DNA of 64,000 bases. It comes from Escherichia coli. GTDB taxonomy: Bacteria; Pseudomonadota; Gammaproteobacteria; Enterobacterales; Enterobacteriaceae. The notes under the pieces were generated by a model. That model did not search any database, was not told where the DNA came from, and saw nothing but the letters and a program-made list of their open reading frames with translations. Location: NCBI RefSeq assembly GCF_011045215.1, contig NZ_CP049201.1. One strand, written 5' to 3'. A program made the position numbers and the translations under genes. Shown here piece after piece: positions 18,289 to 33,906 of the stretch (its first letter is position 1; the number at the start of each line of letters is the position of its first letter).

Positions 18289-18876
18289 TCAGTTAACTGA
18301 ATCGATCCATTGCACACTGTCGGCGGTGAGCGTAAAGGGAGTAGGGGTGCAGATCGCCAGGCTTAAATTTTCTAGCTGACAATGGCTGACTGACAGCGAG
18401 GAGTGATAGGTGCTGTCTACGCTGACGATTTGCCAGGCGCTGCCACCACGCTGTTTAACGATGGCTTCTTTGCGCGTCCAGATGCGCCAGAACATTTCCA
18501 GTTGCTGATCAGGATGCACGGCGTCCATCTCAGCGTGTTCCCCGAGGCTGAATACGGCGTTCGCCAGCCAGCGCCAGTTGGCGCGCGGGCGAATCACTTC
18601 GATATCGCAGCCGACTTCGCCTTCATCACTCAACAGCAGAGCGATATCGTCACCGCTATGGCTTAAGTTGAACCATAGCGGCGTTTCCGGCGCGAATGCA
18701 GGTTTGCCTTGTTCGCCATAGATGATCTCCGGTAGCGGGGAAAGCGTGTGCGAAAGCAATGCACGCCCCGCCAGCCAGCGTTCGCGTCGTGGACCTTGCG
18801 GTGCTTGCTCGCGTAAACCCGGTGGCAGTGGAGCTGCGCTTAAGGTCGAAACTTTCCCCAGAACTATCCGATACAT
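18289..18876 (-). CDS. acpT: 4'-phosphopantetheinyl transferase AcpT
   Basis: 195-aa product starting MYRIVLGK (the ORF-track extension to 18996 is probably spurious). Its start codon lies 1 bp after the stop of the last ketosynthase gene of the upstream cluster. Confidence 0.85.
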   Translation of the reverse strand: MYRIVLGKVSTLSAAPLPPGLREQAPQGPRRERWLAGRALLSHTLSPLPEIIYGEQGKPAFAPETPLWFNLSHSGDDIALLLSDEGEVGCDIEVIRPRANWRWLANAVFSLGEHAEMDAVHPDQQLEMFWRIWTRKEAIVKQRGGSAWQIVSVDSTYHSSLSVSHCQLENLSLAICTPTPFTLTADSVQWIDSVN

Positions 18877-18877
18877 A

Positions 18878-20107
18878 TCAGGGCCAACGTTTAATGATGA
18901 TGGATGTATTAATGCCGCCAAAGGCAAAGTTGTTACTCTGCAAAAACTCACAATCAACCTTGCGGGCTTCATGCATGATGTAATCCAGCGCGCCACAATT
19001 CGGGTCTGGTTTATTCAGGTTTAGCGTAGGCGCAAACCAACCTTCGCGCATCATTTGCAGACTCATCCAGGCTTCGAGCGCGCCACAGGCACCAAGCGTA
19101 TGACCAAAATAACTTTTCAGCGAGGAGAGCGGCACATTATCACCGTAAATGGTTGCTGTCGCCAGACTTTCTGCCATATCACCGCGATCGGTCGCCGTAC
19201 CATGCGCTGAAATATAGCCGATATCTTGTGCGCTTAACCCGGCGATTTTCAGCGATTGCTCCATACAATACTGCATGGTTTCGCTCTGCGGCTGGGTAAT
19301 ATGTGCCGCGTCGCAGTTAGTCGCAAAGCCGACGATTTCACCGTAAATGGTCGCGCCGCGCGCTTTGGCGTGCTCCAGTTCTTCGAGAATGAGCGTACCT
19401 GCGCCTTCACCAATCACCAGCCCGTCGCGGTTTTCATCGAACGGTGAAGGTGTGGTTTTCGGCGCATCATTGTGCTGGCTGGTGGCGAAAAGCGTATCAA
19501 ATACCGCTGCTTCTGAAGGACATAACTCTTCGGCACCACCAGCAACCATCACCGTTTGATAACCGTGGCGAATGGCTTCCCACGCATAACCGATTGCCTG
19601 GCTGCCGGAAGTACAGGCGCTGGAGGTTGGGATCACCCGCCCGCGCAGGCCGAAAAAGAGGCCAGTATTAACGGCGGTGGTGTGCGGCATCATCTGCACA
19701 TAGGTGGTGCCAGTGATGTTATTGGTGTGCTTTTCCGTCAGCATGGTGGCGAACTCGCTTACCGGGCCGGTACTGCCGGTCGATGAACCGTACGCAATGC
19801 CCGTTTCGCCGCTGGTTAATATCGGATCGCCAATCAACCCTGCCTGCTCTAACGCCAGCTCGCTGGCACGGGTCGACATTTGCGACACGCGGCCCATCGC
19901 ACGGATACGCTTGCGGGTGTAGTGCTCCGGTAGCGTGAAATCATCAACAGGCGCGCCAAGCAGGGTGTGCAGCCCATCGTAGACCTGCCACTCCGGCATT
20001 TTGCGCACCGCATTTTCATATGCCAGTAAGCGTGCAGAAACGTCCTGCCAGTTTTCACCAAAGGCAGTCACGCCGCCCATTCCTGTAATCACTACGCGAC
20101 GTGTCAT
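18878..20107 (-). CDS. Beta-ketoacyl-ACP synthase (KAS I/II type), last biosynthetic gene of the APE-type cluster
   Basis: 409 aa; Cys-His-His triad contexts (SSACTSG, HGTAT, GHTLGA). By cluster order this would be apeR in the Xenorhabdus nomenclature as I recall it (unverified). Confidence 0.85.
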   Translation of the reverse strand: MTRRVVITGMGGVTAFGENWQDVSARLLAYENAVRKMPEWQVYDGLHTLLGAPVDDFTLPEHYTRKRIRAMGRVSQMSTRASELALEQAGLIGDPILTSGETGIAYGSSTGSTGPVSEFATMLTEKHTNNITGTTYVQMMPHTTAVNTGLFFGLRGRVIPTSSACTSGSQAIGYAWEAIRHGYQTVMVAGGAEELCPSEAAVFDTLFATSQHNDAPKTTPSPFDENRDGLVIGEGAGTLILEELEHAKARGATIYGEIVGFATNCDAAHITQPQSETMQYCMEQSLKIAGLSAQDIGYISAHGTATDRGDMAESLATATIYGDNVPLSSLKSYFGHTLGACGALEAWMSLQMMREGWFAPTLNLNKPDPNCGALDYIMHEARKVDCEFLQSNNFAFGGINTSIIIKRWP

Positions 20108-20835
20108 AACATCCCTCCGTTGATGGAAATAACCTGGCGGGTGACGTAACCCGCAATATCAGACATTAAATAACTGGCAAGCCCGGCAACTTCTTCCGCC
20201 TGGCCCATACGTTTCATGGGGATCATCGACATTGCCTCTTTCAGAGCGCTCTCTTCCATTTCGATCATCCCGGTATCAATAAGCCCCGGCGCGATGCAGT
20301 TGACGGTGATTTTGCGCTTCGCGAGTTCGATAGCCAGCGCTTTTGTTGCGCCGATAATTCCGGCTTTGGCAGCGCTGTAATTCACCTGGCCGCGATTGCC
20401 CATTACGCCGGAAACCGAGGATAGCGTGATGATGCGCCCACCCTGGCGTGCGCCGATCATCGGCATAATGCACGGCTGAATGACGTTGTAGAAACTGTCG
20501 AGGTTGGTGTGGATCACCGCATCCCAGTCGTCATCGCTTAAAGCCGGAAAAGCGGCATCGCGGGCGATCCCGGCGTTACTGACCACGCCGTACCAGGCAC
20601 CGTGTTGCGCGATCTCATGCTCCAGCACTTCCCGACACTGTTCGCGGTTTGCGACGTCGAAACTGAGCAAACGCCCGTTACCCCCATTGGCGACAATGGC
20701 ATTCAGCGTTTCCTGAGCGCCTGTGGCGTCACGGTGATAGTGAACGCCAATGTTAAAGCCGTCTGCCGCCAGTTGGCAGGCGATGGCGCGACCAATGCCT
20801 TTGCTGGCACCAGTAACCAGAACTGAACGACTCAT
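20104..20835 (-). CDS. 3-oxoacyl-ACP reductase (SDR, FabG-like)
   Basis: 243 aa; TGASKGIGRAIA cofactor motif, NAG, YSAAK catalytic motif. Would be apeQ by order (unverified). Confidence 0.85.
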   Translation of the reverse strand: MSRSVLVTGASKGIGRAIACQLAADGFNIGVHYHRDATGAQETLNAIVANGGNGRLLSFDVANREQCREVLEHEIAQHGAWYGVVSNAGIARDAAFPALSDDDWDAVIHTNLDSFYNVIQPCIMPMIGARQGGRIITLSSVSGVMGNRGQVNYSAAKAGIIGATKALAIELAKRKITVNCIAPGLIDTGMIEMEESALKEAMSMIPMKRMGQAEEVAGLASYLMSDIAGYVTRQVISINGGML

Positions 20836-21299
20836 CAGGACGCTCCTTGTTGAAACAGGGTGGTAAGTTCTTCCGCGGTCGGCTGGAAGGTGTTAATGCG
20901 GCCCGTCGCCTCGCCGTCGTTGATGCTGCACTCAAAACTGCCGAAGCGATCGTCCTGCATCAGCAGTTTGACGGTAATGGTCAGCGTCTGGCCTGCGGGC
21001 AGAATGCCAGTGGTGCAAAGCAATTCACGCGCGCCCAGTATCATCCCTAACTCAATACTGTTTTTGCCTTGCTGGTGGCGATGCCAGCCAGACCAGACGC
21101 CGACGGTTTGCGCCATCAGTTCAAGGGCAAACCAGCCAGGGAGATTGCCGTCCGGGTCGAGAAACGGTGCCAGTACGCCACTGGGCGAAACCGTCACGCG
21201 GCACACCGCGCTGTCATCGCTGACGCTCACCACGTCTTCCAGCAGTAACATGGGCGCGTCGTGGGGCAGATAAGCGCCGGGGGATAAATAGTGGCTCAC
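20835..21299 (-). CDS. Hot-dog fold 3-hydroxyacyl-ACP dehydratase (FabA/FabZ-like)
   Basis: 154 aa, hot-dog-fold size and composition; sits between KR and KS genes. Would be apeP by order (unverified). Confidence 0.7.
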   Translation of the reverse strand: MSHYLSPGAYLPHDAPMLLLEDVVSVSDDSAVCRVTVSPSGVLAPFLDPDGNLPGWFALELMAQTVGVWSGWHRHQQGKNSIELGMILGARELLCTTGILPAGQTLTITVKLLMQDDRFGSFECSINDGEATGRINTFQPTAEELTTLFQQGAS

Positions 21300-22474
21300 G
21301 AAACCCTCCCGAGCAGAATGCTGGCGTTATTGCCGCCAAAGGCGAAGGAATTGGACAGGATCACCGGACGTGCCAGCGGCTGTGGTTTTTCGATAATGCC
21401 GCACGGTGGCAGCGTGGGATCGCACGGCGACAGGCTGAAGTCCTGAGCGGGCAGCGGTAAATCACGCTGTAAAATCAACATGCTGATTGCCGCCTCGGTA
21501 ATGCCCGCCGCGCCCAGCGTGTGGCCGGTCAAATGTTTGGTGGAACTGCACGGTACGCGTTCGCCAAACAGGGCGTTAACCACCATTGATTCAATCTGAT
21601 CGTTGAGTTGTGTGGCGGTGCCGTGCAGGTTGATATAGCCGACGTCATCTGGCGTAAGCTGTGCATCGTTCAGCGCCTGATTAATAGCGCGGATCGCTCC
21701 TTCGCCCTGCGGATGCGGGGCTGAAATATGGTAAGCGTCGCTCGATTCACCAACGCCCAGCAACGCGATGGGCTGCGGTTCCCGGGTCAGCAGCATTAGC
21801 CCCGCCCCTTCACCAATGGTGATACCTGCGCGGTCACGACCAAACGGCTGACATAAGGTTGGCGACAGCGATTCGAGGCTGTGAAAACCGTTAATCGGCA
21901 TCCGGCTCAGGGTGTCTGCGCCACCCACAATGGCGGCATCGACCAGCCCCGCTTCGATAAGCCTGCGCCCGCTGATTATCGCTCTGGCGCTGGAAGAGCA
22001 GGCGGTTGAAAGGGTATAGGCCGGGCCGTCGAGCGCCAGCCAGTGGCTGAGAAAACGCGACGGATCGCCGAGTTCCTGTTGCGCGTAGTGCCATGTGGTG
22101 CTCGGCTGCCCGTGGGTGCGCAGGTTAACGTGCGTGTCGCCTTCATGCAGGCCGGAGGTGCTGGTGCCAAGTACAATCGCGATGCGCTCGCGACCATATT
22201 TCGCGATAGCGTCATCAACCTGCGGCTGGATCTGCGCCAGCGCCGCCAGCAGGATCTGATTGTTGCGCGAGCGGTGCGCAGCGAATTTTTCCGGGATAAG
22301 CGGAAGCTCGCCATCCACGCCAGCCAGGACCGCCTGCGGATGCCCCTGCAACCAGCCTGCGCGCGGGCGCATGCCGGGAGCAACACCGCGAGTCAGGTTG
22401 GTTGCGATTTCGTCAAGGTTATTTCCCAGGGCGTTGATCATGCCGACGGCGGAAATATAAATCATATCAGTCAC
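21296..22474 (-). CDS. Beta-ketoacyl synthase (elongating KS)
   Basis: 392 aa; active-site contexts STACSSS, HGTATQ, GHTLGA. Would be apeO by order (unverified). Confidence 0.85.
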   Translation of the reverse strand: MTDMIYISAVGMINALGNNLDEIATNLTRGVAPGMRPRAGWLQGHPQAVLAGVDGELPLIPEKFAAHRSRNNQILLAALAQIQPQVDDAIAKYGRERIAIVLGTSTSGLHEGDTHVNLRTHGQPSTTWHYAQQELGDPSRFLSHWLALDGPAYTLSTACSSSARAIISGRRLIEAGLVDAAIVGGADTLSRMPINGFHSLESLSPTLCQPFGRDRAGITIGEGAGLMLLTREPQPIALLGVGESSDAYHISAPHPQGEGAIRAINQALNDAQLTPDDVGYINLHGTATQLNDQIESMVVNALFGERVPCSSTKHLTGHTLGAAGITEAAISMLILQRDLPLPAQDFSLSPCDPTLPPCGIIEKPQPLARPVILSNSFAFGGNNASILLGRVS

Positions 22475-23051
22475 CTAAGTATTGAATGGTGATGTGGTAT
22501 TTAAAGACATGCTGCTCAATGCTGATTGGCACGCGTTTTCCCTGGCGATTCAGATAGGTGATTTCCGTGACCAGTTTGCCGCTGGCGTTACGCAGCTCGC
22601 GTTTGTCACCGTTGTCGCGAAGTGTCCATCCTGCGGGAAGTTGCGGTTGCCAGGCGCTAATCGGCCAGTGGCTGAGCATCACGTCAGCCAGTACCTGACT
22701 TGCGGGCGGTAACTGTGGGACGACGATGGATTGCTCGGCGCGTAGCCCTTGCGCATCGTAGGTCACCAGAAACAGGCGAATGCCGACCGACGACAGCCCG
22801 GCAAGGGTGATTTTCTGATCGTCGGCGTTAAGCATTACTAGCAGCGACTGGGTGTTGCCGTTGAAGCTGCCGGTTAACAGTTGCTGGGAATTGACGGCGG
22901 GTGAAATCCCCGGTGCCGGCAGCGTGATGCGCGTGCCAGGTTGCAGCCACGCCTGCGGGCGGCCTTCCTGTTCCGGTTGCGAGTGGCTACAGCCGGTGAG
23001 GATAAGCGTAGCGGTCAGGGCGAACGCTCGCCAGAAGGTAGGTTTGATCAT
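22467..23051 (-). CDS. Lipoprotein (DUF3261-like)
   Basis: 194 aa; signal peptide with lipobox (LTGC). Confidence 0.7.
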   Translation of the reverse strand: MIKPTFWRAFALTATLILTGCSHSQPEQEGRPQAWLQPGTRITLPAPGISPAVNSQQLLTGSFNGNTQSLLVMLNADDQKITLAGLSSVGIRLFLVTYDAQGLRAEQSIVVPQLPPASQVLADVMLSHWPISAWQPQLPAGWTLRDNGDKRELRNASGKLVTEITYLNRQGKRVPISIEQHVFKYHITIQYLGD

Positions 23052-25366
23052 TTTTTTGTTCTCTTTTTATCGGGCATAGCCAGCGGCGAAAGCAGGAAGG
23101 CGGTGAAAATACCGCTCACCAGCACAATGCCAAAACTGCTGATGGCCTGGGTGGCGCTGAATACCAGCATTCCCAGCGTCAGCAAGGTGGTGAGCATTGC
23201 CAGTGTGATCGCCAGTAGCGAAGTTAACGGCGTACCGCGCGGATTACTGAAAAACAACGTGTAGTTGATACCGATGCCAAGTACCAGCACCAGCGCCAGC
23301 AGCGAAAAGAGATTCACCGCCTGCCCGCTCATCGCCAGCACCGCCAGACCACAGCCCAGCGAAAGCACCGAAGGCACCAGGCTGATAAGCCCTTTGCGCC
23401 AGCCGAGACGGGCCACTGCGCCGCAGGCAATCACTGCCAGCGCCACCAGCAACAAGCCGGTTAAGACGTAGCGGTAAAGTGCGAACAATTCATCAAAGGT
23501 GCTTTTGCGATCAACCCAGGCAATGCCGCAAGGGTAATATGTGGCGATTTCCTGCATCAACGCGCTACTTTTAACCCCTTCAACCGGCACCAGTACGCCG
23601 CTTTCGCCATTTTCCAGCGTCAGCCACAGCAGACGCCAGCCTTCACTGGCGGGGCTTGCCAGCCATTCATCAACGTTCACTGGCATGGCGTTGAGATCTG
23701 GTTTCACCGCCGTCAGCCCGGCGTTTTGCAGTGCTTTTGTTACCGTCGGGGCCGCCGTTTTCAGCAGGTCTAAATCTTCCTCCTGTCGCGCCAGAGAGTT
23801 CAGCGGAATAGTGCGGTAATTGCTGATAAGACCGTCTTTTTTCGCCTTCTCCAGCGAGGAGGTAAATGTCTCCAGCCGTCCCAATGTTTGCTGTGGGGAG
23901 TCGCCGTAAACCACAAACCATTTTTGATCGACGCTTTGCCCGGTCAGGGCGGTAATGGCTTTCTCCTGGGTCAGAATATGCTGCGGTAGCGCCTGTAACT
24001 GCGAGATATCGTCATCGACGCGCAGCATTGACATCCCCGCCAGCGAAAACAGCGCCAGCGCGACGGGCAGACCCAGCGACAGTTTTTTATTACGCCGCCA
24101 CGCTGCCAGCCAGCGTAGCATCAGCGCCATCGCCGGAACCGGACGCACCGGCAGGCCACGGCACAGCCACGGATGCCAGAACAGGACGGTCAGACAAGAG
24201 GCGCTCAACCCGACGGCGGCAAAAATCGCCATCTGGCGAATGCCTGGGAAGGGGGCGAGCATCATAATCAGATACGCCGCCACGGTGGTGAGCAGCGCCA
24301 GTAGCAAGGCATTGCGTACTTTCGCCAGGCTTTGCCACGGCGAAACGTCGTTGCCGTGCACCATCCGCTCGGTGAGATAATAGAGCGTGTAGTCAGCGGA
24401 AATGCCGATAACGCTCATGCTCATTACCAGCGTCATCAGGTGTAATTCACCGAAAATCAATAAAGTGGCGACCGTTCCCGCCAGCGCGCCGATGCCGATG
24501 GAAATCACGCAAAGCAGCAACGGGCGCAAAGAGCGGAACACCGCCACAATCAGCAATATCACCCCCAGCAGCGTTGCCACGCCCAGGGTTGAGATATCCT
24601 GCTTCGCCTGTTGGCTGGCGTAATCGCTGTAAAACACCGTGCCGCGCGAAAGCAGCTGCGCCTGCGGGTAACGCGTTTTCAGATCCTTTTCCAGCGTATT
24701 CAGGGTCGTGATGAGCTGGTGGGTTTGCTGCATATCAAACGACGATCCCGCCAGTTCACCGTGCAGCAGATACCAGTAGTTGCCCTGGGGATCCTGCGTC
24801 ACCAGCCAGCCGTCCATCAGCCGCAAACGCTGGCCGTTTTTCGCCATCGCCAGCTGCGAGCCGCGCATTAACATCAGCGGATCGTTTTGCAGCTCCTTGC
24901 CGCTTACCCCGGAGAACGCAGAATAAAGCTGGGAGAGGATCCACTGCGCCTGCGCTTCGCCGCCGTTTTGCAGGCGCGCGCGGGTGTCGGGGTCAATCAG
25001 GCCGTTGCGGTGCTGCCAGAAAAACGCTCCCCACGCTTGCTGGCTGGCGGCATCCATTGGCCCTTTAACGTCGCCGAGCGCAGCGGATTTTTGCAGCAGC
25101 GTCAGCCACTCCTGAGCGACCAAAGGATTAGCCTCTTTACCGGGGCTGACCAGCCACACCAGTTGGCGGTCAAGACGCTGCATAAAGCCGTCATTCAGCG
25201 CCGGAGGAATATCGCCCATCGTCTGTTTGGGTAACATAGCCAGCACGCTACTGTTCAGCCGTGATTGCGGCAGCAGGATCAGCAACGCCGCCGCCATGAC
25301 CAGGCAGACTAGCCCCCATAACAGCGCGGGGCGTTTACTGGGCGGCAAAACGTTGGCGTTCGTCAT
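23048..25366 (-). CDS. MMPL/RND-superfamily membrane exporter
   Basis: 772 aa; two blocks of transmembrane helices each following an extracytoplasmic domain, typical of MMPL-type lipid exporters. Confidence 0.75.
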   Translation of the reverse strand: MTNANVLPPSKRPALLWGLVCLVMAAALLILLPQSRLNSSVLAMLPKQTMGDIPPALNDGFMQRLDRQLVWLVSPGKEANPLVAQEWLTLLQKSAALGDVKGPMDAASQQAWGAFFWQHRNGLIDPDTRARLQNGGEAQAQWILSQLYSAFSGVSGKELQNDPLMLMRGSQLAMAKNGQRLRLMDGWLVTQDPQGNYWYLLHGELAGSSFDMQQTHQLITTLNTLEKDLKTRYPQAQLLSRGTVFYSDYASQQAKQDISTLGVATLLGVILLIVAVFRSLRPLLLCVISIGIGALAGTVATLLIFGELHLMTLVMSMSVIGISADYTLYYLTERMVHGNDVSPWQSLAKVRNALLLALLTTVAAYLIMMLAPFPGIRQMAIFAAVGLSASCLTVLFWHPWLCRGLPVRPVPAMALMLRWLAAWRRNKKLSLGLPVALALFSLAGMSMLRVDDDISQLQALPQHILTQEKAITALTGQSVDQKWFVVYGDSPQQTLGRLETFTSSLEKAKKDGLISNYRTIPLNSLARQEEDLDLLKTAAPTVTKALQNAGLTAVKPDLNAMPVNVDEWLASPASEGWRLLWLTLENGESGVLVPVEGVKSSALMQEIATYYPCGIAWVDRKSTFDELFALYRYVLTGLLLVALAVIACGAVARLGWRKGLISLVPSVLSLGCGLAVLAMSGQAVNLFSLLALVLVLGIGINYTLFFSNPRGTPLTSLLAITLAMLTTLLTLGMLVFSATQAISSFGIVLVSGIFTAFLLSPLAMPDKKRTKK

Positions 25367-25940
25367 CGGTCAGTTGCGCTGGCGTCAGTTGATGTTGGGT
25401 AAGAGCAATATCGGTGCGATCGCCCTGTTTATCATTAAGTTGAATGCTCTCCAGATAGGTTTTCCCGGCGAGATCGATGGTGTTGAAAATTTTATCCAGC
25501 GGCGTGGTGGTCGGCGTCAGGCGCAGCGTCCAGCGGCCTTCGCCTTTGTCAGCAAATTCGACGCGGAAGTTTTGTTCCAGCACTTTGCGATCGGCCTGGA
25601 ACAGCGCGCGCAGCAGGTGGTTAAACTGGAACATCTGCGGGTTGTTTTCTGCCGTGATGATTTGCGGCGGCTGACCGTTGATCACCTGCACCATGCGTTT
25701 ATCGTCCAGTAATAGCTGCATGGGGAATGGTGAGGTTTGATCCCACAACAGCCCCTGGTCGCGGGCGATCAACATCTGGCCCTGAGATCGCAGCGGCTGC
25801 GGCAGATCTTTAATCGTCCGGGTTTGATCGAAATGGGCGCGGATCACCGGTTGTTCGGTAAAGCGTTGCTGAAGATCGTCCAGGGTCAGGGCGCTCACAA
25901 ACGGGCTAATCAGCAGCGCCAGCAGCGGTAAAAATTTCAT
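25335..25940 (-). CDS. LolA-like outer-membrane lipoprotein carrier
   Basis: 201 aa with signal peptide; LolA-family length and composition; 32-bp overlap with the MMPL gene. Confidence 0.65.
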   Translation of the reverse strand: MKFLPLLALLISPFVSALTLDDLQQRFTEQPVIRAHFDQTRTIKDLPQPLRSQGQMLIARDQGLLWDQTSPFPMQLLLDDKRMVQVINGQPPQIITAENNPQMFQFNHLLRALFQADRKVLEQNFRVEFADKGEGRWTLRLTPTTTPLDKIFNTIDLAGKTYLESIQLNDKQGDRTDIALTQHQLTPAQLTDDERQRFAAQ

Positions 25941-26359
25941 GGTTTGACTCCCATGCGTTCAAACAGAATATCGGGGCTGACAAAGCACAGTTCGCGACTT
26001 TGCTCGTCGACCGCGACCTGAATGGTGTATCCGGTGGTGGCGCGTTTGCCCGTTTCGGCATCGAAAATCTGATAGCCAATCCGCAGACGGTTTTCGAACT
26101 CTTCGATATGCGCACGCACGCGGATGCGTTGCTCAAAGGTGAGGGCGTGGCGATATTTCACCCGCGCATCGACCACTGGCCACAAATAACCGGACTCTTT
26201 CATCTGCCGATAGCCGTAATTGAACTGGTTGAGCAGCGCCTCGCGAGCCACTTCAAAGTAGCGAAAATAGTTACCGTGCCAGGCCACGCCCATCATATCG
26301 ACGTCGTGAAAGGGAATGGTCAGCTCGACTTCAGCGGTAAATCGGGGATCGTTAAGCAC
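25937..26359 (-). CDS. Acyl-CoA/acyl-ACP thioesterase (4HBT / YbgC-like hot-dog)
   Basis: 140 aa; 4HBT-type N-terminal motif (IPFHDVDMMGVAWHGNYFRYFE). Confidence 0.8.
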   Translation of the reverse strand: MLNDPRFTAEVELTIPFHDVDMMGVAWHGNYFRYFEVAREALLNQFNYGYRQMKESGYLWPVVDARVKYRHALTFEQRIRVRAHIEEFENRLRIGYQIFDAETGKRATTGYTIQVAVDEQSRELCFVSPDILFERMGVKP

Positions 26360-26362
26360 CCT

Positions 26363-28039
26363 TTACTCCTTGTCCTGAATTTCCGGCAGTTGCCAGAAAT
26401 CGAAAAAATTAAACCAGTCGAGGGGCGACTGGAGCGCGTAATGTTCCAGACGCGCGGCGTAGTGGTCGATAGCGTTTTGCAGCGCCTGCTGGCGTTCGCC
26501 ACGCGGCAGTTGCAGCGGGTCGGCAAAGCTTTCGCAGTGAATATGCAGCTTGCCGTGCTGGCGTAGGGCGAAAATCAGATTCACCGGGCAGCGCAAAATA
26601 GACGCGAGAATAAACGGTCCCTGTGGGAAAGGCGCAGGCTGGCCCATAAACGAACTCCAGCAGACGCGCCAGTCGCCGCCGCGTTGCGGGGTGACGGCGA
26701 TACGGTCACCGACAATCGCCACCCATTCCCCGTTATCCAGCTTCTCTTTCAGCAGGATGGCGGTTTCTGGGCCGATATCTGTTACCGGCATCAGGTTAAT
26801 GCCTGCCTGAGGAGCCATCTCCTGCATTATCTGTTTAAAGCGTTGGGCGTTTTCGCTAAACACCAGCGCGTTAATGGTTTTGTAGCCCTGAATTTTTGCC
26901 AGCGCCCGGCACACTTCCACATCGCCAAGATGCGAGGCCAGCAGCAATTTGCCGCGCGGATCGCGGACGTCAAGCGCCGCTTCTGCGCCTGGCGCAAACA
27001 GCACATCACGCCCCAGTTGTAGCTCGCCGCGCCAGCTGGCGATTTTGTCGAGCATGGCATTACCGAAACGTAGAAAGTGCTGATAGCTGTTGAGTTTTGC
27101 CGCCTGTGGTTGATGCTGTCGTACACGGGCGAGCCAGTCTTGCGACGCTTTGCGCGCACGAGAAGCAGTGAGCCAGTAGACGCCCACCACCGGGTAAAGC
27201 AGCGCGCTAAACGCCGTTCTTCCCAGCAGACGCCAGACCAGCAGCATCAGGCGCATTCCCCATAACCCTTTCACCTCACTCTGCCGCGCCCAGTGGCTGG
27301 AAGAACGGCGCATCAGCAGTGAAGGAATACGCGGCAACATGCCGAAAAATAGACGCGTGTGCATGAGCGAGATGCGGACGTTATCTTTCAGGGCATCAAA
27401 ATGCGAAAGCCCGTCCAGCGGATAGGTGACGCGGGTCGGCACGAAATAACTGGTGTTTCCCTGCCAGTAGAGGCGCACCATCACTTCGGTGTCGAAATCC
27501 ATCCGCTTGCCGATGGTGGCGTGTTTTGCCAGTTGCAGCGTTGGCGCAACCGGATAAACGCGAAAGCCGCACATGCTGTCTTTCAGTTGCAGGGAGAGCG
27601 TTTCGATCCATACCCAGACGTGAGTGACCCAGCGCCCATACAGCCGTGAGCGGGGGATGGAGTCATCGTAAATTGGCTGGCCGGAGATCAACGCCGCAGG
27701 GTGTTGTTCAGCGAGTGCCAGCAGTTTGGGGATATCTTCAATCGCATGTTGACCATCAGCATCTACCTGCACCGCATGGCTGAACCCCGCGTCTGCCGCT
27801 GCCTGTAAGCCGCGCATCACCGCCGCGCCTTTACCTGCGTTTTCTGCCAGGCGGATTAAGGTCACGCCAGGCTGTTCGCTAATCAGATTATCCAGTTGCT
27901 GTTGCGTGGCGGCATCGCTGCCGTCGTCCACCACAATACAAGGCAGATTAAATGGCTTAAGACGCGCCAGCACGCCCGGCATCATCGCGCCGTGGTTGTA
28001 GCAGGGGATCAACACGCAGGGAGAAAAGTTTACCGACAT
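26363..28039 (-). CDS. Two-domain protein: N-terminal family 2 glycosyltransferase fused to a C-terminal acyltransferase-like domain
   Basis: 558 aa; GT2 motifs (VVDDGSD, DxD-type VQVDADGQH) in the first ~230 aa, followed by membrane-associated and acyltransferase-like segments. Confidence 0.7.
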   Translation of the reverse strand: MSVNFSPCVLIPCYNHGAMMPGVLARLKPFNLPCIVVDDGSDAATQQQLDNLISEQPGVTLIRLAENAGKGAAVMRGLQAAADAGFSHAVQVDADGQHAIEDIPKLLALAEQHPAALISGQPIYDDSIPRSRLYGRWVTHVWVWIETLSLQLKDSMCGFRVYPVAPTLQLAKHATIGKRMDFDTEVMVRLYWQGNTSYFVPTRVTYPLDGLSHFDALKDNVRISLMHTRLFFGMLPRIPSLLMRRSSSHWARQSEVKGLWGMRLMLLVWRLLGRTAFSALLYPVVGVYWLTASRARKASQDWLARVRQHQPQAAKLNSYQHFLRFGNAMLDKIASWRGELQLGRDVLFAPGAEAALDVRDPRGKLLLASHLGDVEVCRALAKIQGYKTINALVFSENAQRFKQIMQEMAPQAGINLMPVTDIGPETAILLKEKLDNGEWVAIVGDRIAVTPQRGGDWRVCWSSFMGQPAPFPQGPFILASILRCPVNLIFALRQHGKLHIHCESFADPLQLPRGERQQALQNAIDHYAARLEHYALQSPLDWFNFFDFWQLPEIQDKE

Positions 28040-28413
28040 AGGCGGATCTTCCCGCTACTGGCGGTGTGGCGGGCGTCACCGTCGTGACGCTGATAGCTAA
28101 AGCTCAGAATCTGGCGATCTTCCTGCCAGTTAAGCGTGAGCGTGACGCGGTTTTCCGGCAGCAACGGAGACTGGAATTTTATGTTCTGAATGGAGTGAAA
28201 ACGCCAGCCAGGCGCGAGCAGGGCAAGCGCGTAACTCATGGCCCAGTCGATTTGCGCAACTCCTGGGAGTAATGGTTGCACGGCAAAATGGCCGCGAAAC
28301 CAGAACAGATCTGCCCTGAGATGCAAAACAATCTCAAGGTGATTCGCTTGTGCCTGATGGCGCTCGATTTCATGGGGCTTCATGAAATAACTCCTGTAAT
28401 TGCGCATAGACAC
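28030..28413 (-). CDS. FabZ/FabA-like hot-dog dehydratase
   Basis: 127 aa; FabZ-type motif (FRGHFAVQPLLPGV). The start may lie at an internal Met (MKPHE...). Confidence 0.75.
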   Translation of the reverse strand: MSMRNYRSYFMKPHEIERHQAQANHLEIVLHLRADLFWFRGHFAVQPLLPGVAQIDWAMSYALALLAPGWRFHSIQNIKFQSPLLPENRVTLTLNWQEDRQILSFSYQRHDGDARHTASSGKIRLCR

Positions 28414-29731
28414 GCTTGTTCATACTGTTTACTGGCATTTCATCAATAACGCGCCAGTAACGCGGAATGGCAACCGGCTCCAGCATCGGGCGCAGTAATC
28501 GCCGCCAGGCTATTTCCTGGCTATGCCCGCCGCCGTGCTGCCATTGCAGGCGAGCTTCGTCATCCAGCACCAGCAAAACGCCAATGCACTGACGCCCGCC
28601 GCGTGTAACAGGAACTGCCGCCGCCTCGCGAATACCGTCCAGTGCCAGCAGACGTTGTTCCACTTCCTGGAGTGAAATGCGTTTTTCTTCAATTTTAACG
28701 ATGCGTCCGCGACGCCCCATCAGATGGAACTGGCCGTCTTCGCTAAACTGTAAGATATCGTCGAGTAACAGGCCGTTATCTTCCGCCATCAGCGGTGAAA
28801 AGAGACGAAAAGAATCACCTTCGGCCTGGAACTGCATACCTGGGAGGGGTAGCCAGCGGCGTTGCTCTTGTTCGCGGTAGCGCCAGGCGATGACGCCGGT
28901 TTCCGTGCTGCCGTAGATTTCATCAGGCCAGACGCGCAGCCAGCTTGCGGTGTGTTGTACATCCTGCCACGGCAGCTCACCGCCAGCAGAGAGAAGCACC
29001 TGAACGGGTGGCGGAGAAAGCTGGGTATCCAGGCGCTTCAAAAATGCCGGGCTGCTGATGAAGATATAGCGATGCTGATGACTCAACGCGGCAAACTGTT
29101 CGACATACCAGAGCATGGCGGCGTGCAGCGGTAATCCCAACGCCATGGGCAGGAAAACGCGAAAAGTCAGGCCGTACAAATGCTGCGGCAATACGGAACC
29201 GACGACACGACAACCCGCCAGACGTGCGCCTAATCGTTCAGCCAGCAGTTCTGCTTCACGATCCAGCAAATGAACAGGTTTAATCACCCGTTTCGGCTGT
29301 CCCGTGGAACCGGAGGTAAACAGCTCGATAAAAGCCTCTGGCGCTATAGCGGAAAAGGTGAAGGATTGTGTCGCGATTTGTGGAGAACTTGCTACCAACA
29401 GCAATGAACCTTGCCAGTTAAGTTCGCTGTCGCTAAGCACACCATCAAAAAGTTCACGTTGCTCGTTAAGCTGGATAACACGGTTATGCCCCGGAAGCAC
29501 CGGCGTTTTTCCGGCGTGTAGCGTGGCGAGCAGGGCAACGATAAACAGATAGCTGTTCTCAAAGCACAGCGCCCAGCGTTCACCTGGCTGTTGCTGCAAG
29601 CGGCAGATAAGTTGCGCGACATCGTGACGCAAATCGCCCAGCGTCCAGGTGCTTTCGTCCAGCCACGCAATGGGCGTGTCATCAGGGCGTGGCGCAGTCA
29701 GCCAGCGTGCAAGCGGTAAGGTCTGCTTCAT
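28370..29731 (-). CDS. AMP-dependent synthetase/ligase (adenylating enzyme; candidate aryl starter-unit activator)
   Basis: AMP-binding motif TSGSTGQPK. Start placed at the Met that forms an ATGA overlap with the upstream gene's stop (plus strand 29728-29731 reads tcat); the ORF track extends to 29770. Confidence 0.8.
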   Translation of the reverse strand: MKQTLPLARWLTAPRPDDTPIAWLDESTWTLGDLRHDVAQLICRLQQQPGERWALCFENSYLFIVALLATLHAGKTPVLPGHNRVIQLNEQRELFDGVLSDSELNWQGSLLLVASSPQIATQSFTFSAIAPEAFIELFTSGSTGQPKRVIKPVHLLDREAELLAERLGARLAGCRVVGSVLPQHLYGLTFRVFLPMALGLPLHAAMLWYVEQFAALSHQHRYIFISSPAFLKRLDTQLSPPPVQVLLSAGGELPWQDVQHTASWLRVWPDEIYGSTETGVIAWRYREQEQRRWLPLPGMQFQAEGDSFRLFSPLMAEDNGLLLDDILQFSEDGQFHLMGRRGRIVKIEEKRISLQEVEQRLLALDGIREAAAVPVTRGGRQCIGVLLVLDDEARLQWQHGGGHSQEIAWRRLLRPMLEPVAIPRYWRVIDEMPVNSMNKRVYAQLQELFHEAP

Positions 29732-30309
29732 GCGCGATCTCTTTTCATCACCTGACGGCGCACCAGCCATTCACCAGCCATTAATGTTCCCATCAACAAA
29801 TAAGCAATCATGCCGTTCCAGGCGGTCCATAACGACATATCGGCATAAAGCGCGGTAAAGAGGGCAATTCCACCGTTGATGATGAAAAAGCCGCACCAGA
29901 TTTGCGTGACGCGGCGGGTATAGCGCATGCCCTTTTCCGGCAGATCTGGCTCCTGCAAACGCGCCAGCCGCTCAACTATCGGCATTGCCGACCACAGCGA
30001 ACCGCCAAAAACCGCCAGCATGACCGCGTTAACCACTACCGGGTAAAACAGCAGTAGCTGGTGTGTTTTCAACAGAACGCTGGCGACACATAATGCGATG
30101 CCCACGACAGCGACGATTTGTGTGACGACCTGGAGCGGCCCCGCCTGGCGACGGGTCTGGCGCAGGCGCAACAAAAGCAGCAACGCTATTAGCGGCAACA
30201 GCCAGTGCAGGCCGTTATGCGCTAAGCCAAACCAAATCACAAACGGCCAGGCGAGCAGCAATAATCCAGTCAGCAGCTTAATCATCGGTAGCGAGCGAAT
30301 GCCCGACAT
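29728..30309 (-). CDS. Small polytopic membrane protein of unknown function
   Basis: 193 aa, about 5 predicted hydrophobic helices; embedded in the operon with coupled stop/start. Confidence 0.6.
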   Translation of the reverse strand: MSGIRSLPMIKLLTGLLLLAWPFVIWFGLAHNGLHWLLPLIALLLLLRLRQTRRQAGPLQVVTQIVAVVGIALCVASVLLKTHQLLLFYPVVVNAVMLAVFGGSLWSAMPIVERLARLQEPDLPEKGMRYTRRVTQIWCGFFIINGGIALFTALYADMSLWTAWNGMIAYLLMGTLMAGEWLVRRQVMKRDRA

Positions 30310-30313
30310 CAGA

Positions 30314-30565
30314 TCAGGCTTCTTGTAGCAGGCGTTCTACAGCCTCGACGACATCCTGGACTGTACGCACTGCTTTAAACTCTTCCGGCTTGATTTTCTT
30401 ACCGGTTTTCTTTTGCAGGTGCACAATCATGTCAACGGCGTCGATGCTGTCCAGTTCCAGATCTTCGTACAGGCGCGCTTCAGGTTTGATGTCCTGCGGA
30501 TCGATTTCAAACAGCTTAACCAGCAGGGCTGAGACTTCCTGATAGACGGTTTGTTGTTCTGTCAT
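30314..30565 (-). CDS. Acyl carrier protein
   Basis: 83 aa; phosphopantetheine attachment motif (LELDSIDAVD). Confidence 0.85.
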   Translation of the reverse strand: MTEQQTVYQEVSALLVKLFEIDPQDIKPEARLYEDLELDSIDAVDMIVHLQKKTGKKIKPEEFKAVRTVQDVVEAVERLLQEA

Positions 30566-30576
30566 GATGGCTTTCC

Positions 30577-30834
30577 TCAGGCACGTTGCGCAGCAATGAA
30601 AGAGGCCAGAGTGGCGACGGAGAAAAAGTGCTGACGCATCTCTTCGCTTTCCGCAGAGAGCACGATGCCGTACTCATTTTTTACTGCCAGTCCCAGTTCC
30701 AGGGCATCGATAGAGTCCAGCCCTAAACCGTCGCCAAACAGCGGCGCGTCGGTATCGATATCATCAGGCGTCAACTCGTCCAGATTGAGGGTGCTGATGA
30801 TGAGGTTTTTAATTTCCAGATAAAGCGCTTGCAT
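30577..30834 (-). CDS. Acyl carrier protein (second, divergent copy)
   Basis: 85 aa; attachment motif (LGLDSIDALE). Confidence 0.85.
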   Translation of the reverse strand: MQALYLEIKNLIISTLNLDELTPDDIDTDAPLFGDGLGLDSIDALELGLAVKNEYGIVLSAESEEMRQHFFSVATLASFIAAQRA

Positions 30835-31630
30835 TATTTATTCCTGAGAGAGGTAAACAACCTTGTTGTAATTGAAGCAAAAGATGCCGGTTTAACTGCC
30901 TTGCTGCCAGCGCCGGTTCTTGTGAAGTTGCATCGTAAAATTTATTGATTTCAACCCGACCATGGACTGCAACCGTAAAAAACGGCCGGTCAGGTGGAAC
31001 GTCATACCATTTACTTTGTTTATCCAGCAGATGCTCGCTACAGCCGATCGTCACGATGCGTAAATCGCTGGCACAGCGCACGGCAATATTCGCCGCCCCG
31101 CGCTGCAGCGTCATTTTTTCACCGGGCTTCGTTCGCGTGCCTTCGGGGAAAATCAGGATAGTGTCACCCTGTGCCAGTCGCTGTTGGCAGCGGGGTAACA
31201 GGGTTTCAGCTTCGCTGTTGATTAAATAATCTGCCGCCCGCACGACGCCGCCAAGAAAAGGATTTTTTAACAGCGCGCTTTTCACCAGGCAGTCAGTTTC
31301 TGGCATGACTGACGCCAGCAGCACGTAATCGATCAGCGTGGGATGATTGGCTACGACGAGGCAACCGCGTTCCTGACGTAAAATTTCAGCGCCATCAATA
31401 CGATAATCCAGCACGCCAAGCCCTTTCGCGACAGTTAAAAACAGGCGAAAACTGGCGGCAATGCTGCGACGCGCCAAACGACGGCGGCGGGAAGTATCCC
31501 ACACCAAAACTAACAATATGTTAAACCACACGACAGAAAGCAGCAGGCCGCCGAGACCAAACAGGGCAAAACATAACCCGGTCATGACCAGTCGCCAGGT
31601 CCACTCCAGACGTGACATCAGCTTACTCAT
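30809..31630 (-). CDS. Lysophospholipid acyltransferase (PlsC-like)
   Basis: HX4D acyltransferase motif (NHPTLID). Start placed at the Met giving an ATGA overlap with the upstream gene (plus strand 31627-31630 reads tcat); the ORF track extends to 31648. Confidence 0.8.
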   Translation of the reverse strand: MSKLMSRLEWTWRLVMTGLCFALFGLGGLLLSVVWFNILLVLVWDTSRRRRLARRSIAASFRLFLTVAKGLGVLDYRIDGAEILRQERGCLVVANHPTLIDYVLLASVMPETDCLVKSALLKNPFLGGVVRAADYLINSEAETLLPRCQQRLAQGDTILIFPEGTRTKPGEKMTLQRGAANIAVRCASDLRIVTIGCSEHLLDKQSKWYDVPPDRPFFTVAVHGRVEINKFYDATSQEPALAARQLNRHLLLQLQQGCLPLSGINNASALSGN

Positions 31631-32352
31631 CTGTGGCTCCAGCGCCATTGCACGCGCTCGCCAGGCAGTGAAAATGTGTCTACATTTTGTAAATAGTGCT
31701 GTAAAAACAACATGCTTTGCGGCAGTGTTGTTTCATTGCCCGCAATGGCTGACTGCGTTTCACATTGCCAGTCATCGCCAGCTTCAATCACCAGCGCGAC
31801 GGCGTACGGCCAGGTCGGCATTTCTGCAGGCAGTTGTGGGTGATAAAACTCGGGCAGAAAACCGTCAAAATCGACCATCAGCACGCGCTGGTATCCCGCT
31901 TGTAACAGGCTAAGCACTTCACACAAACCTTGCTGGAAAGTGTCGCGACCAGCAGAAAGCGATGACGAAACGATCGGCTGTTTGGCCGCAATGGTCAGGT
32001 TACCCACGGAAGAGTTGTGTACTGAAAGTGCAAAGTCGGTCGGAGAAAGCGCCTGTTCGGTTGCCAGTGCATGAACAATGCGGTAATTGCGCTCCAGTTC
32101 GCCATGACGACTGGTATACAAAACGGCGTCTGGCTGATGGCGGCGTAGCATTGCCAGACCGCATTCAACAGCCAGTTTGCTGCCTGAACTGAGGCGGCGG
32201 GCGGTCATCATTGGCAGTTCACTTAATTTTGCCAACGGCGCGGCAGGGTCAATCGCCCACGGCTGGCGCGACCATGCTTGCCATTGCTGCGCTTCGCTAA
32301 GTCCAGGCGCCAGTGCCTGCCAGTCGGTAATATTTAATGTAAATTTCATCAA
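31627..32352 (-). CDS. Short ketosynthase-like protein (chain-length-factor-like KS partner)
   Basis: 241 aa with KS-like sequence but much shorter than a full KS and no clear Cys-His-His triad (SVHNSSVG where the active-site Cys block would be). Confidence 0.65.
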   Translation of the reverse strand: MMKFTLNITDWQALAPGLSEAQQWQAWSRQPWAIDPAAPLAKLSELPMMTARRLSSGSKLAVECGLAMLRRHQPDAVLYTSRHGELERNYRIVHALATEQALSPTDFALSVHNSSVGNLTIAAKQPIVSSSLSAGRDTFQQGLCEVLSLLQAGYQRVLMVDFDGFLPEFYHPQLPAEMPTWPYAVALVIEAGDDWQCETQSAIAGNETTLPQSMLFLQHYLQNVDTFSLPGERVQWRWSHR

Positions 32353-32389
32353 CGCGCGCCCGCGGTAAACCCAAATTATTAAGTGACGA

Positions 32390-33457
32390 TTATTTCTTTT
32401 GGCATATCAAAAGTGTATGCCCAACGCCTAAATTATCGTGGCGCTCTGCTACCTGGAATCCTGCTTTATTCAGATAGTCGTAAAATTTCTCTGCACTATA
32501 GAAACGGCTGTTACCGTTTGCCATGCAGGTAAAATAAAGTGAGGACGCGTTCAGGCTAAACGATGCTGCTTCAAACCGCTGCGCATCCCAGAACAACTCC
32601 ATGATGCAAACTTTTGCGCCAGGCTTCATTACGCTGGCAATTTTGCTGAGTATGCTAATTATTTGTTCGGGTGAAAAACAGTCTAAAAATTGGCTCATCC
32701 ACCAGATATCAGCCTCGCCCGGTAATGGGGCATCGCTTAGCATATCCACCGCATGGAAATCTATGCGATCAGAAAAACCTGCATTCGCGATATTTTCTTT
32801 CGCTAGTACGATTTGTTGTGGCAGATCTAATAACGTCACGGCGATGTTTTCATTGTATTTGCAGCAACGCAAAGCCCACTTACCCGTATTGCCGCCTACA
32901 TCGTACAATGTTGTGGGGTTGTTGGCGAATACATAAGGCAGTGCGGCGTTAAATGCGCCATCTGAATAGTAATGATCAAACGCAAACCAGCTTTCACGAG
33001 CGGCGTCTGGTAATTGCGAAAGTGCCGGATATATCGTCGACCAGTCGCCAAATACTTTTAACCCGGAAGGTTTTCCTTCATTGAGTGAATCGGCGAGGAA
33101 GAAGAGCCCCTGGTAACAGACATCCTGGGTGAAATCCATATTCACGCGAGTCATAGTGTCATGCAGGAGGTAATGACCGATTTTCGCCAGGTAATAAATT
33201 CCCTCTTTACAGGTAATAATTCGCCCGCTTAAGCCCATATCTAACAGAACGCTGGCAGCATATTCGTTGATATGGCTATGTTCGGTGATATCAGCCAGCG
33301 TTGCGCCATGTTTGCCTTGCCGATCCAGATATGAAAGTACACCCGCATTACGTAGGCAGAGTGCTGTTTGAAAAAGCATAGGGGCAAAGGCAATGCGTTG
33401 AGCTTCGGTAATCGCATCCAGTGCGCTAAGAGAATCCTGTTCGTACATGTTGGGCAC
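32390..33457 (-). CDS. SAM-dependent O-methyltransferase (class I)
   Basis: 355 aa; SAM-binding motif (LYDVGGNTGKWA) within a C-terminal Rossmann-like domain. Would be apeB by order (unverified). Confidence 0.8.
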   Translation of the reverse strand: MPNMYEQDSLSALDAITEAQRIAFAPMLFQTALCLRNAGVLSYLDRQGKHGATLADITEHSHINEYAASVLLDMGLSGRIITCKEGIYYLAKIGHYLLHDTMTRVNMDFTQDVCYQGLFFLADSLNEGKPSGLKVFGDWSTIYPALSQLPDAARESWFAFDHYYSDGAFNAALPYVFANNPTTLYDVGGNTGKWALRCCKYNENIAVTLLDLPQQIVLAKENIANAGFSDRIDFHAVDMLSDAPLPGEADIWWMSQFLDCFSPEQIISILSKIASVMKPGAKVCIMELFWDAQRFEAASFSLNASSLYFTCMANGNSRFYSAEKFYDYLNKAGFQVAERHDNLGVGHTLLICQKK

Positions 33458-33516
33458 AACCTGTTAAGAGGGAATTAAATTATTATCGGACCGCAACGGC
33501 CCGACTTTAGGAAGAA

Positions 33517-33906
33517 TTATAAATCTGCGCCCGCTGACAAATTCAGTTGAATATCTTTGTCGAGATTGCGGACCCAGCGATTGTAGTTTTTATGAATTTG
33601 TCCGCCTGACGCTTGTAGGTTCTGGCTATTTTCATAATTGATATCGTAGCTGGATGCCGTGTAGTTAATGCGTATTTCCGCTGAATGATCGCGTGACTGT
33701 TGACGTGCTTTAATTATGCCTTGTCCGGCTTCGGACATAATCCATTTGCGTTCAACGCCAGCTTTCAGAATCGCTTTTTTCACTTGTTCCTGGGTATGAC
33801 CAGCGCTGACGGTTGAGTGAACCTGATCAATTGGCGCAGTACGCGCGCAACCTGCTAAAGCACCCACAACAGCAATAGCCGCAAACCATTTCATGTAATG
33901 TCTCAT
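33517..33906 (-). CDS. Small lipoprotein of unknown function leading the cluster
   Basis: 129 aa; signal peptide plus lipobox (LAGC); the real start may be the internal Met at MKWFAAI. Confidence 0.6.
   Translation of the reverse strand: MRHYMKWFAAIAVVGALAGCARTAPIDQVHSTVSAGHTQEQVKKAILKAGVERKWIMSEAGQGIIKARQQSRDHSAEIRINYTASSYDINYENSQNLQASGGQIHKNYNRWVRNLDKDIQLNLSAGADL

Follow-up and report, generated by a model that had tools for sequence, protein, structure and literature searches.

How does the pigment lipid of the aryl-polyene (APE) cluster of Escherichia coli reach the outer membrane, and do three neighbouring genes inside this cluster provide the route? The question arose for a stretch of 64,000 nucleotides from E. 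coli (contig NZ_CP049201.1, assembly GCF_011045215.1), here called the window, in which a reading made from the letters alone (the sequence-only reading) had pointed out a lipoprotein, an MMPL/RND-type exporter and a LolA-like carrier as a dedicated export module. In Gram-negative bacteria, uropathogenic E. coli included, APE pigment lipids provide protection against oxidative stress and have an effect on biofilm formation. Based on the comparison of the sequences, the three genes were identified as apeL, apeM and apeN of the E. coli APE island, a set that is already described and not new. As to the route, we consider it probable (about 0.6) that ApeM would extract the APE lipid by use of the proton-motive force, that ApeL would shield it and that ApeN would insert it, moving the lipid to the outer membrane.

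Identity and conservation of the gene trio

All three open reading frames (ORFs) claimed by the sequence-only reading for 22467-25940 are present at exactly these positions on the minus strand (Table 1), and the types assigned to them, i.e. a lipoprotein with a lipobox, a 772-aa MMPL/RND exporter and a LolA-like carrier, are borne out by the Pfam matches and the lipobox. Transcription proceeds from apeL via apeM to apeN, which is the reverse of the order in which that reading had listed the genes. The trio is located between apeK (thioesterase) and apeO (ketosynthase), inside the APE cluster. At the orthologous locus, RefSeq names the products LolA family protein, MMPL family transporter and DUF3261 domain-containing protein. 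They are surrounded by ketosynthases, dehydratases, a ketoreductase, two acyl carrier proteins (ACPs), an AMP-binding enzyme, acyltransferases and a methyltransferase, with yhhT and acpT-nikABCDER as flanks, and the NCBIfam annotation of the neighbours in the window agrees with this. For strain CFT073, Table 1 of Johnston et al. 2021 (PMC8253772) describes the product of apeL (c1192) as a chaperone resembling LolA, that of apeM (c1191) as a transporter of the RND type and that of apeN (c1190) as a DUF3261 protein resembling LolB. Every feature of the ApeL/ApeM/ApeN set that we tested, namely the position in the cluster, the types and order of the proteins and the orthology, was found in the window.

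The 3474-nt segment comprising the trio occurs with 95-99% nucleotide identity in 825 of 5426 complete E. coli genomes, in every case on the chromosome. In a locus search with ApeM as the single query, which reached Enterobacterales only, 79 out of the 80 loci representing different species showed the order LolA-like, MMPL, DUF3261, with the thioesterase gene ahead of the trio and a ketosynthase gene behind it. The longer order of thioesterase, LolA-like, MMPL, DUF3261, ketosynthase, dehydratase, ketoreductase and ketosynthase is kept in two metagenomic clusters (L002 and L085), for which ApeN showed an identity of 40% and 35%, respectively. One locus (L088) comprises no transporter beside the DUF3261 gene, but its contig has a length of only 4.9 kb; for several other distant DUF3261 proteins, the contigs ended too close to the gene for neighbours to be seen. 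Since the ORFs are long, the family matches strong and the synteny conserved, a chance artefact is excluded as an explanation for the trio.

Two of the loci deserve a remark with respect to their taxonomic labels. The locus L043 (CACSKA010000004.1, deposited as 'Chryseobacterium sp. 18061') carries apeLMN of the Enterobacteriaceae type, and its identities of 82/79/80% match those of L041 (CACSJR010000002.1, 'Citrobacter sp. 18056') from the same project; the assembly seems to be mislabelled or contaminated. The locus L032, from a metagenome-assembled genome named 'Tolumonas sp.', showed an ApeM identity of 78% and may be mis-binned.

The transporter ApeM

ApeM matched the Pfam family MMPL (PF03176, E=3.6e-8). 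An AlphaFold2 model (predicted local distance difference test, pLDDT, of 82.1; predicted template-modelling score, pTM, of 0.69) and the hydropathy gave a topology of 12 transmembrane (TM) helices in a 1+5 / 1+5 arrangement, comprising TM1, a periplasmic domain (about residues 35-242), TM2-6, TM7, a second periplasmic domain (about residues 447-619) and TM8-12. The best Foldseek match of this model was HpnN (5KHS, E=2.4e-18, TM-score of 0.63), followed by PfNCR1 (Plasmodium NCR1) and MmpL4/5 with E-values of about 1e-14 to 1e-13 and TM-scores of 0.55-0.62 for MmpL4/5. The first AcrB-type pumps showed E-values comparable to those of PfNCR1 and MmpL4/5, while their TM-scores were lower. HpnN was also matched at the sequence level (E=1.5e-6). 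The scores against the NCBIfam models of HpnN (TIGR03480) and HAE3 (TIGR00921) amounted to 47.3 and 49.5 bits and thereby lie below the cut-offs of 751.85 and 351.9, respectively; a weak NCBIfam match to BstA was found as well (E=9.9e-8). Altogether, within the RND superfamily, ApeM falls on the lipid-transporting side of HpnN and the MmpL proteins, in a subfamily distinct from HpnN and HAE3. Grammbitter et al. (bioRxiv 10.1101/2020.12.19.423268) assigned it to a separate 'APPE' family of RND proteins.

With regard to the energy supply, D325, which is part of SADYT in TM4, corresponds in the alignment to the Asp of the HpnN TM4 motif 'GVDFS' (chain residue 344), and the TM10 motif GINYT contributes the pseudo-symmetric pair. 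Among 81 ApeM orthologues (44-99% identity), D325, Y326, H309, R334, Y702 and T726 are invariant, while N701 is kept in 79 and replaced by Asp in the remaining two. The resulting layout, Asp-Tyr in TM4 and Asn/Asp-Tyr in TM10, resembles the Asp-Tyr pairs of MmpL3 and argues for ApeM being driven by the proton-motive force. If ApeM is coupled in this way, a separate ATP-consuming energiser would therefore not be needed. In the literature, ApeG, a proposed energy-supplying 'COG4648 pyrophosphatase', has been put forward as such an energiser (PMC8253772; bioRxiv 10.1101/2020.12.19.423268); for the ApeG of the window, no significant Pfam or NCBIfam match was obtained.

The predicted carrier ApeL and the lipoprotein ApeN

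The N-terminus of ApeL, as read from the sequence, is a Sec-type signal peptide (MKFLPLLALLISPFVSA, followed by LT), and the whole protein comprises not a single cysteine. Because of these two properties, ApeL should be a soluble periplasmic protein. It matched the Pfam families LolA (PF03548, E=9e-12) and LolA_3 (PF19574, E=4.2e-11). Compared to the curated NCBIfam cut-offs, however, its scores are too low both for LolA (TIGR00547, 60.4 bits, cut-off 112) and for the flexirubin-associated LolA2_flexi (E=8.7e-15, 54.6 bits, cut-off 125). For this reason, ApeL is classified as a paralogue within the LolA superfamily and not as the housekeeping LolA or an orthologue of it. The ApeL of the window is 100% identical to E. 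coli proteins, and the homologue searches with ApeL as well as with ApeM gave near-identical relatives only.

The closest solved relative of ApeL is PDB 8T5J, a 'lipocarrier' of the LolA family, which was matched with E=1.2e-22 over residues 23-177. Together with the entries 9COZ and 9CWL, it is described as the crystal structure of a 'LolA family lipocarrier' and is apparently unpublished. A paper on 8T5J was not found in our literature search, and 8T5J is not claimed as an orthologue of ApeL. The genuine LolA 8ORN_A showed a far weaker match to ApeL than 8T5J (E=0.002).

ApeN matched the Pfam family DUF3261 (PF11659) with E=6.6e-39 over the full length of the model (positions 2-136 of 137). 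At the sequence level no LolB match was found, while the fold of ApeN is LolB-like; the equation of DUF3261 with LolB-like proteins is thus supported at the level of structure. In this comparison, LolB and LolA proteins scored above RseB/MucB-type matches. This ranking speaks against the idea that the LolA-fold proteins of the trio are lipid-binding sensors of envelope stress like RseB and MucB, which would report mislocalised pigment lipid. The APE cluster moreover encodes neither an anti-sigma nor a sigma factor, and transport is favoured by how strictly the genes stay next to that of an RND lipid transporter, even in distant taxa, so that a function as sensors appears highly improbable.

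When 108 diverse members of DUF3261 were aligned, the cysteine of the ApeN lipobox, Cys21, was the sole column without variation, and a lipobox-like motif was found in at least 90 of 109 DUF3261 representatives. According to the sorting rule of E. coli, lipoproteins carrying a residue other than Asp at position +2 after this cysteine are directed to the outer membrane. Since the +2 residue of ApeN is Ser, targeting of ApeN to the outer membrane is expected.

The proposed route and its alternatives

Both papers on the APE system (PMC8253772; Grammbitter et al., bioRxiv 10.1101/2020.12.19.423268) propose a route of the APE lipid from the inner to the outer membrane. The product determined for Xenorhabdus comprises a backbone of N-acetylgalactosamine (GalNAc), phosphate and glycerol, which bears the APE together with two acyl chains, one conjugated (C26:5) and one saturated, and has a mass of roughly 1.2-1.3 kDa (bioRxiv 10.1101/2020.12.19.423268). 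The simple polyene lipid assumed as cargo by the sequence-only reading consequently has to be replaced by an APE glycolipid, which is the cargo characterised for Xenorhabdus in the same study.

The route considered here would start with the finished APE lipid assembled on the cytoplasmic membrane, in the case of Xenorhabdus an acylated GalNAc-phosphoglycerol glycolipid. ApeM, as an HpnN/MmpL-like protein, would be driven by the proton-motive force via the putative relay of Asp-Tyr in TM4 and Asn-Tyr in TM10, would extract the lipid from the membrane and would lift it into its periplasmic domains. The half-barrel cavity of ApeL would then shield the acyl and polyene chains on the way across the periplasm, until ApeN, residing in the inner leaflet of the outer membrane, would take over the lipid and insert it there. 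It is the cargo, the direction of transport, the hand-over among the three proteins and the energy coupling that we infer in this scheme. As a dedicated route between the two membranes, it is reasonable: it fits the published model, the LolB-like fold of ApeN, the HpnN-like fold of ApeM and the deep synteny. However, it is still hypothetical and had existed before the sequence-only reading arrived at it; with the pathway idea already in the literature, only the details on coupling and alleles described below would be new.

Several observations weigh against the route. For ApeL, with its score below the LolA cut-off, and for ApeN, for which no NCBIfam family was matched, a function cannot be transferred by orthology. 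Furthermore, HpnN is not known to have dedicated LolA- or LolB-like partners and works without any known ones; a carrier and an acceptor might therefore not be needed. In E. coli, the deletion of apeM resulted in the absence of detectable APE metabolites, and such a loss of pigment is not the simplest prediction of a pure export defect (PMC8253772). Mutants of apeL and apeN exist in E. coli as polar mutants with an apramycin cassette only, and neither a membrane fractionation nor a pigment localisation of E. coli ape mutants is reported in the same work (PMC8253772). In the literature search by gene names, no later experimental paper was found.

The missing metabolites of the apeM deletion, as opposed to a build-up of pigment in the inner membrane (PMC8253772), would also be in line with a participation of the trio in biosynthesis. 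In this case, ApeM, possibly together with ApeL and ApeN, would act as a scaffold or flippase pulling an intermediate from the cytoplasmic leaflet for late assembly, as do MmpL proteins coupled to the synthesis of polyketide lipids, and the trio would be needed for making the pigment and not for its delivery. The resemblance of ApeM to MmpL4/5, whose structure was determined together with the acyl carrier protein AcpM, points in the same direction, and so does the position of the trio amid biosynthetic genes, to which it is translationally linked. On the other hand, a periplasmic LolA-like carrier and a LolB-fold lipoprotein of the outer-membrane type are hard to explain without a transit through the periplasm, and a blocked export commonly leads to the loss of the product as well, through feedback or toxicity. 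We therefore regard a mainly biosynthetic function as unlikely.

A second alternative concerns the cargo. ApeL and ApeN could traffic a lipoprotein, i.e. ApeA, ApeN itself or a protein carrying the APE as its lipid anchor, while ApeM would move the lipid separately. This was raised for the APE system in PMC8253772 and for the LolA2/LolB2 pair of the flexirubin cluster in PMC11885536, and the cluster does encode two lipoproteins, ApeA and ApeN. However, the deletion of apeA retained wild-type pigmentation (PMC8253772), and E. coli already possesses the essential Lol system for its lipoproteins. In addition, the flexirubin LolA2/LolB2 did not substitute for LolA/LolB of E. coli, and their deletion spared lipoprotein-dependent phenotypes (PMC11885536), while the Xenorhabdus product is a free glycolipid without a protein part (bioRxiv 10.1101/2020.12.19.423268). 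Altogether, a lipoprotein as cargo of ApeL and ApeN appears quite improbable, and the transfer of the APE lipid from ApeM via ApeL to ApeN is the reading we prefer.

Comparison with related systems

Compared to the described ApeLMN of E. coli CFT073 and Xenorhabdus doucetiae, the trio of the window comprises the same genes in the same order, in the same cluster, at the same chromosomal site and with the same proposed function, and ApeM is 63-64% identical to that of Xenorhabdus species. No substantive difference was found, and the window carries the full-length 772-aa allele of ApeM.

The sequence-only reading had seen in the trio the logic of the Lol pathway, applied to a small-molecule lipid. 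This holds for one half of the system: as in the Lol pathway, there is a predicted soluble periplasmic carrier of the LolA fold and, as the presumed acceptor at the outer membrane, a lipoprotein of the LolB fold, and the shared logic would be to shield acyl chains and then hand them over. The energising part differs. LolCDE is an ATP-driven ABC extractor, whereas an RND/MMPL transporter, presumably a proton antiporter, takes its place here and the APE cluster contains no ABC transporter gene. Moreover, ApeL is not a LolA equivalog, and the Lol cargo is a triacylated protein, while that of ApeLMN is presumed to be a glycolipid.

The hopanoid transporter HpnN of Burkholderia (PDB 5KHN/5KHS/6WU0) is the best match of ApeM in sequence as well as in structure and shares with it the 12 TM helices, the two periplasmic domains and the Asp in TM4. 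Its reported role is to move a specialised lipid toward the outer membrane. Nevertheless, HpnN and ApeM show an identity of only 16-17%, and the NCBIfam scores lie far under the HpnN cut-offs. A similar three-part composition is found in the sterol transport of Methylococcus, where the system BstA/BstB/BstC combines an RND transporter for lipids in the inner membrane with a carrier in the periplasm and a protein associated with the outer membrane. In contrast to ApeL and ApeN, the periplasmic and outer-membrane components are not known to share the folds of LolA and LolB, and the cargo consists of sterols.

A further parallel are the LolA- and LolB-like paralogues LolA2 and LolB2 of Flavobacterium johnsoniae, which are encoded inside a pigment cluster of the aryl-polyene type and were proposed to carry the pigment to the outer membrane (PMC11885536). 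They belong to another phylum and another pigment, flexirubin, and their role in pigment transport is likewise putative; in this 2025 study, the deletion of LolA2/LolB2 left both gliding motility and secretion by the type IX system unaffected (PMC11885536). If the proposed route is true, ApeLMN would represent a compact and genetically tractable model of RND-driven lipid trafficking with chaperones of the Lol type.

Gene junctions and possible translational coupling

The 32-bp overlap of apeL and apeM had been taken by the sequence-only reading as a sign of tight stoichiometric coupling. The overlap as such is genuine, as apeM has no in-frame start ahead of the ATG at 25366, which RefSeq uses as well and which is conserved in the orthologues. 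With a later start, at the TTG of codon 7 or at Met24 inside TM1, the overlap would vanish, but these candidates were rejected on account of this conservation and the RefSeq start. Among 79 Enterobacterales loci with all three genes, the overlap comprises 29-32 bp in nearly all cases and 32 bp in most genera; counted from the true ATG, a value of about 29 bp results for Atlantibacter, Xenorhabdus, Yersinia and Buttiauxella. The interpretation as tight stoichiometric coupling could not be upheld. Overlaps of 1-32 bp are common in the cluster (11 of 18 junctions) and include biosynthetic pairs such as apeD/apeE (26 bp), apeH/apeI (14 bp) and apeI/apeJ (10 bp), while in the distant clusters the apeL/apeM overlap is shortened to 20 bp (L085) or absent (L002). 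Of the other junctions of the trio, apeK/apeL shows a 4-bp overlap of the ATGA type, as does apeM/apeN, whereas apeN and apeO are separated by a gap of 1 nt, counted from the ATG at 22465, which is also the RefSeq start.

Upstream of apeM (25367-25386), no complementarity to a Shine-Dalgarno (SD) sequence was found. The duplex with the anti-SD sequence showed a free energy (dG) of +0.7 kcal/mol, the weakest value of the 19 cluster genes, compared to -6.8 for apeL, so that apeM pairs the weakest SD with the longest overlap of the cluster. Since apeM has no SD sequence of its own and overlaps with apeL, the sequence at most suggests that the translation of apeM depends on ribosomes translating apeL. 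If anything, a low efficiency would be expected for re-initiation at a site located 32 nt upstream of a stop codon.

Alleles of apeM

While the window encodes the full-length ApeM of 772 aa, many E. coli strains carry an ApeM of 741-751 aa, which results from an in-frame deletion of 27 residues in the first periplasmic domain, as seen in the pairwise alignment with one such protein (P0126). The deletion is flanked by a direct repeat 'LQN...LQN' and takes out two predicted helices. The corresponding 81-nt segment was found in 508 of the 825 trio-carrying E. coli genomes; about 38% thus appear to carry the deletion allele. The full-length form of 772 aa is also present in O157 FDAARGOS_293, and a full-length form was found in all other genera examined.

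Taken together with the junction data, a more far-reaching picture can be drawn, which we put forward tentatively and with less than even confidence: ApeLMN would be a self-contained, proton-driven lipid route from an RND transporter via a LolA-like to a LolB-like protein, distinct from Lol, Lpt and Mla, with apeL and apeM translationally coupled, and it would be undergoing remodelling or loss in about one third of the APE-positive E. coli genomes through the 27-residue deletion in ApeM. Apart from this, what the analysis adds to the described system is the structural support for DUF3261 as LolB-like, the conserved motif of a putative proton relay, the conserved overlap lacking an SD sequence and the common deletion allele of ApeM.

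Two smaller variations were observed in apeM. In TM10, ahead of the GINYT motif (window positions about 23279-23296, residues about 691-696), the window reads LALVLVLG, compared to LALVLVLVLG in P0126; the copy number of the Leu-Val dipeptide thus differs among E. coli strains, which has the appearance of slippage within a short tandem repeat. Moreover, one protein of 966 aa from a single contig (P0121) is a fusion of ApeM and ApeN. A 1-nt indel in the A7 run at 23052-23058 would yield such a fusion, so that an error in sequencing or a frameshift variant is the probable cause.

Table 1. Positions of the genes and sequence features in the window.
Feature	Position	Strand	Description
apeL	25335-25940	minus	201-aa LolA-like periplasmic carrier; basis: ORF, Pfam LolA/LolA_3
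apeM	23048-25366	minus	772-aa MMPL/RND inner-membrane transporter; basis: ORF, Pfam MMPL, AlphaFold2 model
apeN	22467-23051	minus	194-aa DUF3261 lipoprotein, LolB-like fold, predicted outer-membrane anchor
apeL/apeM overlap	25335-25366	minus	32 bp; end of apeL and start of apeM
apeM/apeN overlap	23048-23051	minus	ATGA, 4 bp; preceded by A7 run; 4 bp in most orthologous loci
ApeM TM4 Asp325-Tyr326	24389-24394	minus	motif SADYT; putative proton-relay residues
ApeM TM10 Asn701-Tyr702	23261-23266	minus	motif GINYT; pseudo-symmetric partner of the TM4 motif
ApeM residues 135-161	24884-24964	minus	periplasmic domain 1; 81-nt segment present here, deleted in-frame in many E. coli
ApeN lipobox L18-T19-G20-C21	22989-23000	minus	+2 residue Ser, not Asp
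Aryl-polyene cluster apeA-apeR	18878-33894	minus	genes like type II polyketide and fatty acid synthases, ACPs, acyltransferases, methyltransferase
apeG	29728-30309		proposed energy supplier in the literature
acpT	18289-18876		neighbour of the APE island

Surroundings of the cluster

The G+C content of the APE island (55-60%) differs from that of several flanking parts of the window, which show roughly 47-51%. The island is inserted between yhhT and acpT-nik, with borders near 18.3 kb and 33.9 kb. The gene acpT is that of the phosphopantetheinyl transferase regarded as 'orphaned' in K-12, a strain lacking the APE island.

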